The notes under the pieces were generated by a model. It was not told where the DNA came from, searched no databases, and worked only from the letters and a program-made list of their open reading frames with translations. 64,000 nucleotides of DNA from Escherichia phage vB_EcoM_IME537: the sequence record NC_054921.1; one strand, 5' to 3'. Within the stretch, counting starts at the first letter, position 1. Each line of letters starts with the position of its first letter. Positions 4,394 through 56,382 of the stretch are shown here, piece by piece. A program made the translations under genes and the position numbers.

Positions 4394-5242
4394 TTAATCA
4401 ACTGCTATTGGATGAATAGCATTAAACTTATGAAACGCTTCTGATTTTTCTTTGCGCGAAACACACATACGAAGAACCTTTAATGGCTCGTCTTCTTCAC
4501 CTAATGATTTTCGTTTTTCAATATTAGAAGTTTTCCAACGAGCTTGCTCTGGAAACTCTCTATTGATTTGCTCGAGCGCTCTATTATGTTTTGAATTACT
4601 ACGAATTGAACTACATCCGCCAGGAGCTTGTGCTTTTCCAGATACAACTAGATATTTGAACAAGGCCAAATGCGGATAACCTTGATTAATTAAATTGAGA
4701 AATGCATACATATCTTCGCATAAATCAATTTTTCCATACCCAATTTGTTCTGTTGTAAGTTTTCCGAGGTCATACCAGGTATTCGTGAATCCATATGAAT
4801 TTTCACGATAATTACCCCAAGATGAAGTAATTTTAAAAATAGGTAGACGAGCATGGCCATGATAATACCCGCAATCCATGGCATCTTTAACGTATTGAAT
4901 CAATTCATAGAACTGTTCACGGGTTAATTGATTAATTTTATCTACGCAGCGACGATCATCTTTCTTTCGCATTGAACTCATACGAATAGTAGTATCATCA
5001 TCGATCATCCAAATTCGTTGACCTGCATACATATCAGTAATTGCTTTACGAGTTCCAGCAATTCCATTTACATCATCGGGAATAACTACAATTTTAGCTC
5101 TAGACCCGTAAGCGTCATAATAAGCTTTTTCTTCGTGTTCACGTACTACAATATGAGGTTCATAATCAGTCGGAAACATATCAAGGGCAGAAACTGCCCC
5201 TACGCGTTGATAGCTTGGAATTACGAATTGAATCATTTCCAC
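4394..5242 (-). CDS. putative glycosyltransferase occupying the T4 beta-gt locus (T2/T6-type HMC glucosylation enzyme candidate)
   Basis: 282 aa ORF between uvsX and 42; contains DDD/DxD-like motif (WMIDDDTT); does not resemble T4 beta-gt (351 aa, MKIAIINMGNN...). Confidence 0.45.
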   Translation of the reverse strand: MEMIQFVIPSYQRVGAVSALDMFPTDYEPHIVVREHEEKAYYDAYGSRAKIVVIPDDVNGIAGTRKAITDMYAGQRIWMIDDDTTIRMSSMRKKDDRRCVDKINQLTREQFYELIQYVKDAMDCGYYHGHARLPIFKITSSWGNYRENSYGFTNTWYDLGKLTTEQIGYGKIDLCEDMYAFLNLINQGYPHLALFKYLVVSGKAQAPGGCSSIRSNSKHNRALEQINREFPEQARWKTSNIEKRKSLGEEDEPLKVLRMCVSRKEKSEAFHKFNAIHPIAVD

Positions 5243-16359: not shown

Positions 16360-16377
16360 AAAGGGCCGAAGCCCTTT
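16360..16377 (-). other. UUCG-tetraloop RNA hairpin immediately after alpha-gt stop
   Basis: aaagggccgaagcccttt. Confidence 0.45.
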
Positions 16378-17578
16378 ATTTTGTAATAATGTCAAACTGT
16401 TCTTTAAAGCAGAAGCTTGAATCTTGGTGCTGATACAAAAATTCATAAGCTTTTTCACGTTCACGGTCATAAAGAGCTCGGTCAGATGACAGTTCTTTAA
16501 TACGTTCAAATGTTGATTCCATGTCATTTTCATCAAACCAAACGATACCGCTATCGTGCGAAATTAATGGAGTATTATCAACACGGAATTTTAAATTTTC
16601 GCCAGTAGATTTCCAAAATACTGGAATTGTTCCACATGCACCAAGCTCGAGATGAGTATATTCTAAAGAACGCTGTAGATATTTTTTATCTAATTTACTC
16701 AGCTGATAACCAAATCCGGATTTACTCATGCGTTCAAGCATTTCGCTATTTACATAACGGTCGAGAATTTGCGTCGGCAAATTAGGAGCAATTTTAATTT
16801 GGTCTACTTGATGAAGACGATAATACTCGTATGGAATTCCTTTTTCTTTAATAGGAATGAACGCTGGAGAACGTTCCAGACCTTCCATAATAGTACTTAG
16901 TCCTGCAGGTTTAAGATGTTTTTCGTGAAAATCAAACATCTGATAAAAGCCTTTCCATGTAGTAGTACGACCAATCCAACGATTGATATTCATGTTAATT
17001 TCAGAAACATCTTTCCAGTAGGTTGATCGAACCTTCGCAATATCCATGGGAGGCTGAAAGTTATATACGGTCGGTGCTTCTTCAATATCATCAAATAGAG
17101 AAACAGTTTCCGGATACCATTCTTTCATCAGAACTTTATTAAAATCACCATTATCAGAATGGCTAAAAATAACATCAGCCCGACGAACAGTTTCTTCTAA
17201 TCCCAAATTTCGACGCAAAGAAAGAGAAGAATGGTCATGCTGATAAACTACAACACGAACCGAAGGTTTAATGTTATCAATAATTTTTTTATAGTTATTA
17301 ATGGTGTCTTCTTCAACTGAAGTAGCAGGAACTGAATTGATAACTAGAATATCACAATCATTTACCAGCTTAAGCGTTTTATCGTATTCTTTTGCCAATA
17401 AAACCGGAATTGAAAATGATTTATAATCATGCGCGCAATTACGAGTAAATGATTTATCTTTAGCATAAACCAAAGTTACTTCATGACCATTTTTAATAAA
17501 CCAATCACGCTGCTCAAGAGAAAATTTAGTTACACCGCAACCTTCAAGACCTCGAGCCATAAAAATGCATACTTTCAT
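16376..17578 (-). CDS. agt: alpha-glucosyltransferase (HMC-DNA glucosylation)
   Basis: 400 aa, near-identical to T4 alpha-gt from memory. Confidence 0.88.
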   Translation of the reverse strand: MKVCIFMARGLEGCGVTKFSLEQRDWFIKNGHEVTLVYAKDKSFTRNCAHDYKSFSIPVLLAKEYDKTLKLVNDCDILVINSVPATSVEEDTINNYKKIIDNIKPSVRVVVYQHDHSSLSLRRNLGLEETVRRADVIFSHSDNGDFNKVLMKEWYPETVSLFDDIEEAPTVYNFQPPMDIAKVRSTYWKDVSEINMNINRWIGRTTTWKGFYQMFDFHEKHLKPAGLSTIMEGLERSPAFIPIKEKGIPYEYYRLHQVDQIKIAPNLPTQILDRYVNSEMLERMSKSGFGYQLSKLDKKYLQRSLEYTHLELGACGTIPVFWKSTGENLKFRVDNTPLISHDSGIVWFDENDMESTFERIKELSSDRALYDREREKAYEFLYQHQDSSFCFKEQFDIITK

Positions 17579-45633: not shown

Positions 45634-46107
45634 TTATTTGAACGATTTAACGTACTGAATAGAACCTTTACTATTCACGAAAGCGATTTTACCATTTTTA
45701 TTATACATGGTAGCAGTACGCTGATAACCATAAGTTTGTTTACCAGATTGATAACCAACTAATGCGAAATTATCTTCACCCATTTTATTCTGTTTAGCGC
45801 GAATACGTTCATGTCCATGCGCCATAAGAACCTTAGCATCACCAGTTGCAATGGATCGACGAGTTTTTTCATCTTCAACTGTATTAACAAAATCATCAAA
45901 TGAATCAAATTTAGCATGAGATTTATTATACAGTTTTCCATCTACTGCATAATTATATCCCTGTACATCCATCTCAACTTCTGTACCATCATCTAATACA
46001 GCAGTAATTTTCTGTCCTTTTTTAAATTTCAAAAGATCAGTAAAAGATTCAGCAATAATTTGAGAATTAATAGCTGCTTCAGTAATAAATTCTTGATATG
46101 TTTTCAT
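45634..46107 (-). CDS. internal-protein-like head protein with capsid-targeting leader (ipIII/ipII locus)
   Basis: 157 aa; N-terminal MKTYQEFITEAA matches the T4 internal-protein capsid targeting sequence; located next to e. Confidence 0.55.
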   Translation of the reverse strand: MKTYQEFITEAAINSQIIAESFTDLLKFKKGQKITAVLDDGTEVEMDVQGYNYAVDGKLYNKSHAKFDSFDDFVNTVEDEKTRRSIATGDAKVLMAHGHERIRAKQNKMGEDNFALVGYQSGKQTYGYQRTATMYNKNGKIAFVNSKGSIQYVKSFK

Positions 46108-46184: not shown

Positions 46185-46715
<531 letters not shown>

Positions 46716-51955: not shown

Positions 51956-52031
51956 TGGTCGAGGCAGTAGGGATCGAACCTACGACCTAGGACTTAGAAG
52001 GTCCTTGCTCTTCCTTCTGAGCTATGCCCCG
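51956..52031 (-). tRNA. tRNA-Arg (anticodon UCU)
   Basis: Cloverleaf by hand: acceptor CGGGGCA/TGCCTCG, anticodon loop CTTCTAA, T-arm GGTTCGATCC. Confidence 0.8.
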
Positions 52032-52034
52032 TAA

Positions 52035-52700
52035 TTAAAATTTCATTTTTCGACCTTTAAACCATCCTTCTGGAATTGGGTCAGTTTTCTTAATACGTTT
52101 AGAAACTTTTTCATCTAATGAATGAATCCACATCATACCAAATTGGGAATTCTTTTCTCCTTTCTGGTGATTATTTTTAGCGTGAATTTCTTTCATTTTA
52201 TTAATAGTTTCAGGAGTATGATGCTTATTTAAAAATCTGCTATTATTTAAAAATTTTTCCTTGTATTCAGGAGTTGACCACAAACGTTTAAATACATTTG
52301 AACCAATTTTACGATATTTTTCTTGAAGTAAAATATCATTTTCAAAACGTGATTTAAACGATTTAGCTCCTTTTAAGCTAGCATCTTTCTTCTGGTTTAG
52401 CATCCCAGGAATATTTATATGGTCCCATCCACCTTCACCGCCAAGTTTTAAATTATACACATCTGGTCTATTTAAAAACTCTTCTGTGACAATATTTTTC
52501 TCGGCTTCAAGCATAGATTCTTTATCATCAAAATACTCTAATATTTCTTTAGAGAAATTTTCTATACCATACTTGTCTTGGGCTCTTTTTAATAATTTAC
52601 CAGAACCCATATATCCATCATCTAAATTTTCGGTAGAATGCACACCAATATAAATTTTATTATTAATTTTATTTGTTATTTTATAAGTGTAATGGAACAT
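52035..52700 (-). CDS. segB: SegB GIY-YIG homing endonuclease within the tRNA cluster
   Basis: 221 aa; GIY-YIG module (YTYKITNKINNKIYIGVH...GYMGSG); located between tRNA-Arg and tRNA-Ile as in T4. Confidence 0.8.
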   Translation of the reverse strand: MFHYTYKITNKINNKIYIGVHSTENLDDGYMGSGKLLKRAQDKYGIENFSKEILEYFDDKESMLEAEKNIVTEEFLNRPDVYNLKLGGEGGWDHINIPGMLNQKKDASLKGAKSFKSRFENDILLQEKYRKIGSNVFKRLWSTPEYKEKFLNNSRFLNKHHTPETINKMKEIHAKNNHQKGEKNSQFGMMWIHSLDEKVSKRIKKTDPIPEGWFKGRKMKF

Positions 52701-52741
52701 AAATATCTCCTATTTCTAAGAGTATTTATGTTCCCAAAATA

Positions 52742-52813
52742 TGGCCCTGGGTGGAATTGAACCACCATCTGGCGATTATGAGTCGCTTGCTTGAACCTTC
52801 CAGCTACAGGGCC
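52742..52813 (-). tRNA. tRNA-Ile (anticodon CAU)
   Basis: Acceptor GGCCCTG/CAGGGCC; anticodon loop CTCATAA. Confidence 0.8.
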
Positions 52814-52819
52814 TTGATA

Positions 52820-52892
52820 TGCTGATTGACGGAATCGAACCGCCGACATCCTCATTACAAGTGAGGTGCTCTACCTACTGAGCTAAATCAGC
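52820..52892 (-). tRNA. tRNA-Thr (anticodon UGU)
   Basis: Acceptor GCTGATT/AATCAGC; anticodon loop CTTGTAA. Confidence 0.8.
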
Positions 52893-52899
52893 GAAATTA

Positions 52900-52986
52900 C
52901 GGAGGCGATAGGATTTGAACCTATGAGTCGCCGGAGCGACTGCCGGTTTTCAAGACCGGTGCATTAAACCACTCTGCCACGCCTCC
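52900..52986 (-). tRNA. tRNA-Ser (anticodon UGA), long variable arm
   Basis: Acceptor GGAGGCG/CGCCTCC; anticodon loop CTTGAAA; 87 nt. Confidence 0.8.
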
Positions 52987-52988
52987 AG

Positions 52989-53062
52989 TCTCCGCGGCAG
53001 GATTTGAACCTGCGACATTCTGCTCCCAAAGCAGACGCTCTACCAAACTGAGCTACACGGAG
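52989..53062 (-). tRNA. tRNA-Pro (anticodon UGG)
   Basis: Acceptor CTCCGTG/CGCGGAG; anticodon loop TTTGGGA. Confidence 0.8.
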
Positions 53063-53074
53063 TAAATTAAATTT

Positions 53075-53146
<72 letters not shown>

Positions 53147-53151
53147 AAATT

Positions 53152-53238
53152 TGGTGCGAGAAGTGGGACTCGAACCCACAAGGAAATCATTCCGCAGCAT
53201 TTTAAGTGCTGTGCCTTTACCAATTTGGCCATTCTCGC
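53152..53238 (-). tRNA. tRNA-Leu (anticodon UAA), long variable arm
   Basis: Acceptor GCGAGAA/TTCTCGC; anticodon loop CTTAAAA; 87 nt. Confidence 0.8.
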
Positions 53239-53239
53239 G

Positions 53240-53312
53240 CTGGGAATAAAGGACTCGAACCTTTGCATCCTGGAATCAAAATCCAGTGCCTTACCAACTT
53301 GGCTAATTCCCA
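53240..53312 (-). tRNA. tRNA-Gln (anticodon UUG)
   Basis: Acceptor TGGGAAT/ATTCCCA; anticodon loop TTTTGAT. Confidence 0.8.
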
Positions 53313-53699: not shown

Positions 53700-54083
53700 T
53701 CAGCCTTCATCAACAATAGTGTGAGTATGGGCATTTACGATTTGCCACCAGTCAAAACTATCGCCAAATCGTTTTGATTTATTGTCTTCAATAATTTGGC
53801 GTAATTCATCTTCTGTTTCAGCATACGCAATCAAATCATCATATCCACCACGAGGATAATAATTATCACCTGCAAAAAGTAAAAAGTTTGGTTTAATGTT
53901 ATTGAACTCTTCAAGAGTAATAACTTTTCCTGACGGTTGAACAATCTCTACATATTTATATCCCAATTTTTGAGCAGCATCTACTGCTTCAAGCAGGGTA
54001 TCATGAGCCCATCCAATTTGGCAATCTGGCTTTTCAGATGGATTAGCCTGATAATCCGCGTACACTTTATACATTCTATTCAC
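53700..54083 (-). CDS. hypothetical protein
   Basis: 127 aa ORF. Confidence 0.4.
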   Translation of the reverse strand: MNRMYKVYADYQANPSEKPDCQIGWAHDTLLEAVDAAQKLGYKYVEIVQPSGKVITLEEFNNIKPNFLLFAGDNYYPRGGYDDLIAYAETEDELRQIIEDNKSKRFGDSFDWWQIVNAHTHTIVDEG

Positions 54084-54261
54084 CTTTAGAAATTTTATCC
54101 ATAACGATAGCGATTAAACCAATTAAAAATGCTACTACAAGTGAAAAAACATTTTCTGCTGTAGTCAATAATCCGCATATAAATCCAACAAACATTGAAA
54201 AACTAAAAGCGGAAACAGAAATTGCAATAGCAACATTTCGAATTAATTCACAACGTTTCAT
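54076..54261 (-). CDS. small membrane protein
   Basis: 61 aa, two hydrophobic segments; GAGGAG RBS and early promoter upstream. Confidence 0.45.
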   Translation of the reverse strand: MKRCELIRNVAIAISVSAFSFSMFVGFICGLLTTAENVFSLVVAFLIGLIAIVMDKISKGE

Positions 54262-54286
54262 TTTATTCTCCTCAGTAGTTGATAGG

Positions 54287-54320
54287 GTAATAGTATCACT
54301 ACCCTATCTAAAAGTAAACT
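54287..54320 (-). promoter_or_regulatory. T4-type early promoter cassette (family B)
   Basis: Minus strand GTTTACttttagatagggtagtgaTACTAT. Confidence 0.5.
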
Positions 54321-54553
54321 TATTTTTTACGAAAAATTGATTTATTTTCTGCTGCCCATTTTTCAATAACTGCAGCAGGACCAGTAACAACAATTTTATC
54401 ACCGTAATCTTCTGCGGCGAGTTGACCGAAATTATCTAATGCATCACGAAGAACTCCATGAGGCATTTCACCCATTTTATCTTTCTTACCAGTGTAAATA
54501 AACTCAACTTTTACATCAGCCGCTTCATTGATAAATTCTTTGAAAGTTTTCAT
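54320..54553 (-). CDS. internal protein (ipI-locus, capsid-targeting leader MKTFKEFINEA)
   Basis: About 77 aa from MKTFKEFINEAADVK; the track start (54619) reads through the promoter cassette. Confidence 0.5.
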   Translation of the reverse strand: MKTFKEFINEAADVKVEFIYTGKKDKMGEMPHGVLRDALDNFGQLAAEDYGDKIVVTGPAAVIEKWAAENKSIFRKK

Positions 54554-54584
54554 TTTGATTTCCATTTGGTTTTGTTTTGATAGG

Positions 54585-54618
54585 GTAATAGTATCACAAC
54601 TAAAACTCCATGTAAACA
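54585..54618 (-). promoter_or_regulatory. T4-type early promoter cassette (family B)
   Basis: Minus strand GTTTACatggagttttagttgtgaTACTAT. Confidence 0.5.
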
Positions 54619-54629
54619 ACTTTATGAAA

Positions 54630-54887
54630 TTATTTCAAATCTTCTAATCGTTTCTTCATCTTAGAACCATTTTTAGCAATTTCTCCTGCATCGGAGCATA
54701 ATGCTAAAAGTGCTTTAACTTTAGTTTGGTCTCCTTTAAAAGATGAAGGATCGACTGCAGCAGCAAGTTCTTTAATACGAGAGAAAAGACGCTCAGCTTC
54801 AGCTAAAGCCATTCCAAGCTTTACTTCCATACCGTGAGAAGATTCAGTGATAGTAGTTTTTGTAGCAAACTCTTTGAAAGTTTTCAT
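54630..54887 (-). CDS. internal protein (ipI-locus, capsid-targeting leader MKTFKEFATK)
   Basis: 85 aa; N-terminal MKTFKEFA leader. Confidence 0.5.
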   Translation of the reverse strand: MKTFKEFATKTTITESSHGMEVKLGMALAEAERLFSRIKELAAAVDPSSFKGDQTKVKALLALCSDAGEIAKNGSKMKKRLEDLK

Positions 54888-54913
54888 TTTATTTTCCTAA
54901 TTAATTTTGATGA

Positions 54914-54948
54914 GGTAATAATATCACTACCTCATCAGTATGTAAACA
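54914..54948 (-). promoter_or_regulatory. T4-type early promoter cassette (family B variant)
   Basis: Minus strand GTTTACatactgatgaggtagtgaTATTAT. Confidence 0.45.
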
Positions 54949-54959
54949 ACTTTGTGAAA

Positions 54960-55656
<697 letters not shown>

Positions 55657-55657
<1 letters not shown>

Positions 55658-56382
55658 TATAGTACCTTTAGTGTATTTTTAATTTTAGAAAAAAGTTCTT
55701 CAAGAGAACCATCGTTTGTAATTACTAAATCACCATCACGAATTGGCAATCCAGCTTCTGTAATATGTGTATCATTGGATTTTTGACCAGGACGAACTAC
55801 ATGAATTACTGTAGCACCCATCGCCCTAGCCGCATCCATTTCATGATCTTGACGAGTATCAGGAACGATATAATAATCATAACCTGAGTTAAATTTATCA
55901 AGATAATCTAAAGCAAATAATTTTACCCAATACATGCGGTCGAAGTTATTAACAATCAAATCCGTACCTAGGGCTTGCATCAGACGACGGACTGACCATT
56001 GATCTTCAATATTATTTATAACGTCAATAATCTTGTTACATGCTACGGAATCAACTGATTCTTGTCCTTCGTCCTCAAAAACACACACCCCCTTAATTGG
56101 GCTTTTACCGTTAAGATAGCAAAATGCTTGTTCCATAATCGTGATTACTTCTGATTTAGTCAGATTTAAATTAGTCTCACGATCATAGTCAATTCCTTCA
56201 AACTCTTTACGAGTTAAGCAAGGATAGTCAGTGTTTTCTGCAAATACACCCCATGCATAAGCCAATGCATCTTTAATAGGACCAGCAAGTTGATATTTAA
56301 CTGCAGAATAATTATTCATGATAAAATCTGCAGTAGTATCTTTTCCACTACGCTTTACACCACTTAAAAAGATTAGTTTCAT
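55657..56382 (-). CDS. 1: dNMP kinase gp1
   Basis: 241 aa; P-loop GVKRSGKDT; near-identical to T4 gp1 from memory. Confidence 0.9.

Follow-up and report, generated by a model that had tools for sequence, protein, structure and literature searches.

Two probable injected internal proteins, Ip5 and Ip6, encoded at the ipI locus of Escherichia phage vB_EcoM_IME537

Analysis of a 64,000-nucleotide stretch of DNA of Escherichia phage vB_EcoM_IME537 (NC_054921.1; this whole stretch is called the window below) indicated that the slot of the T4 ipI gene holds a cassette of two genes for probable injected proteins, ip5 and ip6. In this reading, to which we give a probability of about 0.8, Ip6 would block the type IV restriction enzyme McrBC, Ip5 would be an independent effector, and the promoter-bearing cassettes around the genes would allow modules to be swapped between phages. 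The finding is real, ordinary and already known: the genes, their names, the logic of the leader, the plasticity of the locus and a function for one protein of the pair have all been published.

Genes of the slot, their flanks and their spread

The source phage is a T2/T6-like Tequatrovirus, and the 2.1-kb stretch around ip5-ip6 showed 96% identity to phages Ge15, GiZh and T6. The genes are ordered gene 3, gene 1 (dNMP kinase), 57A, 57B, ip5, ip6, the homologues of tRNA.4, tRNA.3 and tRNA.2, and a tRNA cluster with segB (Table 1). The first-pass annotation had placed the two genes at the ipI locus, and this was confirmed by the order 57B, x, tRNA.4, tRNA.3, tRNA.2, tRNA genes, which is that of T4. 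While T4 carries one gene (ipI) between 57B and tRNA.4, IME537 carries ip5 and ip6; 57B/Acb1 and the tRNA.4 homologue are the conserved flanks of this variable slot. As Acb1 is an anti-CBASS/anti-Pycsar nuclease, the ip slot lies within a small counter-defence cluster. About 9% of the 2.1-kb query was not aligned to T6-type phages by megablast, probably within the tRNA.3 homologue; tRNA.3 is 136 aa long in T4 and T6 compared to 127 aa in IME537, and is unannotated in GiZh. The tRNA cluster (51956-53312) contained eight tRNA genes according to ARAGORN, namely Arg, Met(cat), Thr, Ser, Pro, Gly, Leu and Gln.

Table 1. Features of the IME537 window discussed in the text.
Feature	Position	Strand	Evidence and remarks
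TAGT-type beta-glucosyl-HMC-alpha-glucosyltransferase (T2/T6-type)	4394..5242	-	PF20691; 98% identical to GiZh enzyme; adjoins dCMP hydroxymethylase
alpha-glucosyltransferase (AGT)	16376..17578	-	PF11440, E 5e-236
Third leader-bearing gene, 157 aa	45634-46107	-	MKTYQEFITE/AA (slash, predicted cut); phrog_3155 'internal virion protein', full-length, E 6e-102
segB-like GIY-YIG homing endonuclease, 221 aa, between tRNA-Arg and tRNA-Met	52035-52700	-	phrog_314
tRNA.3 homologue, 127 aa	53700-54083	-	GTG start; 8-nt overlap with tRNA.4 homologue
tRNA.4 homologue, 61-aa predicted membrane protein, downstream boundary gene	54076..54261	-	phrog_1692, E 5.8e-35; annotated tRNA.4 in GiZh and T4
Cassette between ip6 and tRNA.4 homologue	54262..54319	-	TTTACT-N17-TACTAT; 12-bp hairpin (54308..54281)
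ip6 (ipVI), 77-aa internal-protein precursor	54320..54553	-	ATG start at 54553; protein begins MKTFKEFINEAADVKV
Cassette between ip5 and ip6	54554..54629	-	promoter TTTACA-N17-TACTAT (54616..54588)
ip5 (ipV), 85-aa internal-protein precursor	54630..54887	-	ATG start at 54887; protein begins MKTFKEFATKTTITESSHG
Cassette upstream of ip5	54888..54959	-	early-type promoter TTTACA-N17-TATTAT (54946..54918); 13-bp hairpin (54937..54908); ribosome-binding site AGGAAA
57B = Acb1 (anti-CBASS phosphodiesterase), upstream boundary gene	54960..55415	-	PF23474, E 2.6e-60; synteny with T4, T6 and GiZh

Two distinct genes with a common MKTFKEF leader and divergence thereafter had been proposed from the letters of the sequence, and this description held: both ORFs were found at the coordinates of Table 1, and BLASTP aligned Ip5 with Ip6 over residues 1-7 only, all of them identical. 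At the DNA level the two genes had a 31-nt repeat in common (90% identity), which takes in the ribosome-binding site as well as the first codons. In the mechanical list of ORFs ip6 appeared as 54619..54320 with a TTG start; the methionine of MKTFKEFINEAADV corresponds to the ATG at 54553. This start was backed by a GGA-type ribosome-binding site at a spacing equal to that of ip5, and the resulting gene is 234 nt long, in agreement with the annotations of T6, GiZh and Bas37.

All 64 kb were scanned in six frames for the leader motif MK[TS][FYL]x[ED][FY]. Three matches were obtained, each opening a minus-strand ORF (ip5, ip6 and the 157-aa ORF 46107..45634), and their position at the starts of such ORFs is not due to chance. 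The 157-aa ORF directly adjoins the lysozyme gene e (46185..46679), and no denV-like ORF was seen between the two. It is the sole internal-protein gene at this second locus in IME537, compared to ipII and ipIII in T4.

Both genes of the first locus were readily identified. Ip5 was 100% identical to Ip5 of RB15 (CAA84462, a GenBank record of 1994) and to Ip5 of T6, PST and Bas37 (bas37_0261), and matched phrog_3499 over positions 1-85 of 85 (E 1.2e-49). Ip6 matched phrog_8111, 'internal virion protein', over positions 1-77 of 77 (E 2.2e-51), and shared 94-97% identity with its counterparts in T6 and GiZh (96% with GiZh ipVI and 94% with T6). T6 and GiZh carry the same two genes at the same position between 57B and tRNA.4, with the same flanking cassettes as IME537, while in RB15 ip5 is followed by ip9, ip7 and ip8, and ip6 is absent. 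The name ip6 was taken from database annotations (GiZh, PST, VR7, UniRef). The names ip5 and ip6 reportedly date from 1994. According to Repoila et al. (1994, as cited in PMC12373910, PMC3012670, PMC9026906 and PMC2839356), the internal-protein loci of T-even phages are polymorphic, with at least 10 Ip types that are alike in the leader only, and with promoter/stem-loop elements around them.

Occurrence was counted in 50,697 phage records. Ip5 was found in 495 of these, 267 of them at an identity of at least 80%; the other approximately 228 records carried a paralogue of about 48% identity beside the lysozyme gene e, and the Ip5 fold family therefore occurs at either internal-protein locus. 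In Escherichia phage EcNP1, one of these approximately 228, the paralogue is 93 aa long, has the leader MKTYSEFLSE and lies next to e, and a T4-type ipI occupies the first locus. Ip6 was present in 244 records, T4 IPI in 291, and the whole ip5-ip6 cassette (DNA, at least 80% coverage) in about 155. The ip5-ip6 arrangement is thus about as common as T4's own, and within this group no internal protein is more widespread than Ip5.

Leaders, predicted processing and relation to the T4 internal proteins

The MKTFKEF of Ip5 and Ip6 equals residues 1-7 of T4 IPI and belongs to the capsid-targeting type MKT(F/Y)(K/Q)EF. In both proteins the leader is closed by the motif (L/I)xE of the gp21 prohead protease, which is expected at the end of a leader of 10-19 residues; the first-pass annotation had named the lack of a processing site as an observation that would speak against it, and an IxE site was present in both. 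The Ip5 leader (MKTFKEFATKTTITE/SSH, the slash marking the cut) has an ITE/S site at residues 13-15, with a predicted cut after E15, and is a shortened version of the T4 IPI leader (MKTFKEFTSTTTPVSTITE/ATL). The Ip6 leader (MKTFKEFINE/AAD) has an INE/A site at residues 8-10, with a predicted cut after E10, and is of the 10-residue type of IPIII, Ip7, Ip8 and Ip9. At the level of motifs, the ends of both leaders aligned with ITE/A of IPI and IxE/A of Ip7, Ip8 and Ip9.

The IME537 Ip6 leader MKTFKEFINE/A differs from the commoner form MKTYQEFIAE/T. Codons 4-12 of IME537 ip6 (AAAGAATTTATCAATGAAGCGGCTG, encoding FKEFINEAA; within 54518-54553, minus strand) were identical in DNA to RB15 ip7, and the remainder was ip6; T6 and Bas37 ip6 carry MKTYQEFIAET where IME537 carries this ip7-type leader. 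Such a mosaic suggests gene conversion between the leaders of different ip genes.

From the biology of T4 IPI and IPIII together with these motifs, a path for both proteins can be proposed. The N-terminal capsid-targeting sequence (CTS) of each precursor would bind the scaffolding core of the prohead, gp21 would cut after the IxE motif (at E15 in Ip5 and at E10 in Ip6), and the mature proteins of 70 and 67 aa would stay with the DNA inside the head and be injected along with it. Co-injection would bring both proteins into the cell ahead of all phage gene expression. The function of the CTS in T4 and processing by gp21 have been reviewed (PMC9026906). The predicted mature form of Ip5 (70 aa) has a pI of about 9.2 and is predicted to fold as a helical hairpin. 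Mature Ip6 (67 aa) has a predicted pI of about 6.8 and a predicted beta-alpha-beta-beta-alpha-beta fold; its AlphaFold2 model (pLDDT 79.5) did not reproduce the fold of IPI*, in which N- and C-terminal helices flank two beta-sheets.

A close parallel is T4 IPI/IPI*, which has the same slot, the same upstream cassette, the MKTFKEF leader, an ITE site very like that of Ip5 and a small size. IPI* is injected and inhibits GmrSD, a type IV enzyme of E. coli CT596 (PMC3012670). In the proposed alignment to T4 IPI, BLASTP covered only the leaders of Ip5 and Ip6, and neither protein was near-identical to IPI. T4 IPII and IPIII, encoded near gene e, are likewise CTS-bearing, processed by the protease, injected and directed at one defence variant each; they differ from Ip5 and Ip6 in their locus, their MKTYQEFI(A/T)E leader and their unrelated mature sequences. 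Of T4 Ip1, Ip2 and Ip3, every protein inhibits a GmrSD variant of its own (PMC12373910). When PDB sequences were searched with profiles of Ip5 and Ip6, no relative of known structure appeared below E 0.03, and searches against Pfam, NCBIfam and PADLOC gave nothing above noise. For Ip6, a search of 5.8 billion proteins and an exhaustive HMM search of 1.84 billion representatives (4 clusters) returned close phage relatives only, and therefore no distant homologue that could serve as a source of mechanism.

Ip6 and McrBC, DNA glucosylation, and a lead for Ip5

The evidence on Ip6 function comes from its orthologue in Bas37 (Escherichia phage KarlGJung, MZ501089), whose cassette DNA was 97.6% identical to that of IME537. 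In Bas37 the slot contains an 85-aa gene (bas37_0261) and, as the second of two, a 77-aa gene (bas37_0260); the authors of the HIDEN-SEQ preprint placed the latter at the T4 ipI locus, where Bas37 has two different genes (bioRxiv 10.1101/2025.11.20.689424). In their work bas37_0260 was needed by Bas37 on E. coli K-12 BW25113 and dispensable on a strain without McrA, McrBC and Mrr, and insertions in the gene were about 30-fold depleted in the McrBC-positive BW25113 compared to four clinical strains (bioRxiv 10.1101/2025.11.20.689424). A clean bas37_0260 knockout was specifically sensitive to McrBC, i.e., the protection concerned McrBC and not GmrSD (bioRxiv 10.1101/2025.11.20.689424).

IME537 Ip6 and bas37_0260 were identical at 73 of 77 residues (95%). 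The differences, at residues 4, 5, 9 and 11, comprise three residues of the leader and the first mature residue (A in IME537, T in Bas37), and residues 12-77 are identical; after processing, the two proteins would thus differ in their first residue only. As the mature proteins are near-identical, the function can be transferred, and with good confidence Ip6 is predicted to be an McrBC inhibitor. Direct binding to McrBC is assumed as its mode of action, by analogy with IPI* and GmrSD. The earlier proposal that alternative proteins at this locus target different host defences is thereby borne out for Ip6 through a published orthologue; since the McrBC result appeared in 2025, the idea was supported but already in print.

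The glucosyltransferases of IME537 offer a reason why such a protein may be of use. The window encodes an AGT and a TAGT-type enzyme (Table 1), and no T4-type beta-gt was seen in the window at its usual position next to the dCMP hydroxymethylase gene. T2 and T6 have only an alpha-glucosyltransferase and a second enzyme of the TAGT type, which adds glucose to already-glucosylated bases (PMC13216743, 2026). Alpha-glucosyltransferase alone leads to about 80% glucosylation, and about 80% is also the minimum for escape from McrBC and McrA (PMC13216743). An AGT combined with a gentiobiosyl-forming TAGT, and no beta-gt, may accordingly leave about one fifth of the hmC sugar-free, at the threshold of McrBC sensitivity. 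Phages with the T2/T6 sugar set would then be borderline targets of McrBC, and a pre-made, injected inhibitor would make sense for them. While T4, with full glucosylation, has the GmrSD inhibitor IPI in the slot, IME537 combines the T2/T6-type sugar set with Ip6.

For Ip5, our literature search found no assignment of function. We propose that it may be a second, independent injected effector. Transposon data in print suggest as its target a defence of the uropathogenic E. coli CFT073. Insertions in bas37_0261 were about 4-fold depleted on CFT073 relative to K-12 (log2FC -2.09, adjusted p shown as 0), and log2FC values on the other strains were -0.01 (CFE299), -0.01 (CFE303) and +0.26 (CFE336) (Extended Data Table 7, bioRxiv 10.1101/2025.11.20.689424). 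The result is given in the supplement of the preprint without discussion by its authors (bioRxiv 10.1101/2025.11.20.689424). Insertions in the upstream 57B orthologue of Bas37 were depleted on CFT073 as well (log2FC -1.56, adjusted p 0.003; bioRxiv 10.1101/2025.11.20.689424), which makes a polar effect possible, and the Ip5 signal could be an artefact of polarity or of this particular strain. CFT073 has a GmrSD homologue, c5421, and a related enzyme of UTI89 restricts T2 and T6 (PMC4437046). Tentatively, and with the odds rather against it, Ip5 might enter with the DNA and inhibit a defence of CFT073, with the GmrSD-family protein c5421 of the immigration control region as candidate target. 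That Ip5 targets a host defence is a lead and not a result.

Promoter-hairpin cassettes and alternative readings

Each gene boundary of the slot in IME537 carries a cassette (Table 1), and the three are copies of one direct-repeat element of 60-70 nt in which the hairpin overlaps the -10 box. All three matched the published PST/T4 consensus TTTACW-N17-TAYWAT (PMC4122927). In the copy upstream of ip5, the promoter was of the T4-early type in the promoter scan and overlapped the hairpin (RNA fold -17.4 kcal/mol, z -4.4); this copy was nearly identical to those upstream of T4 ipI and T6 ip5. In the middle copy the left hairpin arm was degenerate (fold -10.9 kcal/mol, z -2.3). The promoter of the third copy, upstream of the tRNA.4 homologue (fold -16.4 kcal/mol, z -4.0), was read off the alignment, as it scores under the threshold of the promoter scan. 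With their consensus promoter and overlapping AT-rich hairpin, the cassettes resemble PeSL and PeSL-like elements, although the middle copy has lost its left hairpin arm, unlike these. Exchange of modules at internal-protein loci and PeSL elements have been described (Arbiol 2010, PMC2839356; Comeau 2014, PMC4122927), and the elements of the internal-protein loci are, according to their authors, analogues and not homologues of the RB49 PeSLs (PMC2839356; PMC4122927).

In an alignment with T4 and T6, the element upstream of T4 tRNA.4 looked like an ip6-type left half joined to a tRNA.4-type right half, the pattern expected if modules recombine inside the shared core. The cassettes would drive transcription of each gene, and their near-identical copies may serve as recombination sites at which ip modules are swapped between phages. 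No late promoter (TATAAATA) was found directly upstream of ip5 or ip6, the nearest on the same strand being at 56013-56020 inside gene 1; the sequence thus offers no explanation of how the two proteins would be made during head assembly. A scan for intrinsic terminators found none in the region.

Three other readings of the locus were weighed. Ip5 and Ip6 might be generic head-filling or DNA-condensing charge neutralisers with no anti-defence target, encoded at a locus that varies under little constraint. The basic pI of mature Ip5 resembles that of IPI* (9.0), both Bas37 genes were non-essential on a restriction-free host (HIDEN-SEQ preprint), and the lack of any Pfam, NCBIfam or PADLOC family for either protein fits such a role. 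However, the orthologue of Ip6 shows a phenotype specific to McrBC, the near-neutral mature Ip6 would be a poor DNA counter-ion, the three T4 proteins Ip1, Ip2 and Ip3 are each directed at their own GmrSD variant, and the 100% conservation of mature Ip5 across many phages argues for constraint, so that we regard a mere filler role as unlikely. Somewhat lower still we rate the possibility that MKTFKEF is a recombination scar or a translation-initiation module copied along with the cassette, and that Ip5 and Ip6 are ordinary early proteins of the cytoplasm that do not enter the head. The shared stretch does run on from the repeated upstream cassette, each gene has an early-type promoter with no late promoter nearby, and the ip6 leader of IME537 is mosaic with RB15 ip7. 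Nevertheless, conservation was seen at the protein level and included functionally mapped CTS positions (PMC9026906), both proteins have a downstream IxE site at the canonical distance, the leaders of Ip5 and Ip6 differ in length just as those of IPI and IPIII do, and an McrBC inhibitor that is synthesised only once the DNA has entered would come late.

The least probable of the three is that Ip5 and Ip6 together form one two-component McrBC inhibitor. The genes lie side by side, and about 155 phage records have both; however, on McrBC-positive K-12 the mean count of Bas37 insertions was 263 in ip5, which was not depleted, compared to 8.4 in ip6, which was depleted. In addition, RB15 has ip5 without ip6, and a separate promoter cassette precedes each gene. 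A single ip5-ip6 system was therefore rejected, being largely refuted by the Bas37 transposon data and the gene order of RB15.

With two separately acting injected proteins as the preferred reading, the 77-aa gene can be annotated as a probable injected McrBC inhibitor, while most GenBank records list it as a 'hypothetical protein'. An McrBC inhibitor together with incomplete glucosylation of the T2/T6 type would provide a simple, checkable rationale for the different genes in the slot of T4 and of T6-type phages. The small residual value of the locus lies in this rationale and in Ip5, a very common and perfectly conserved protein for which CFT073 provides a testable lead to a target.
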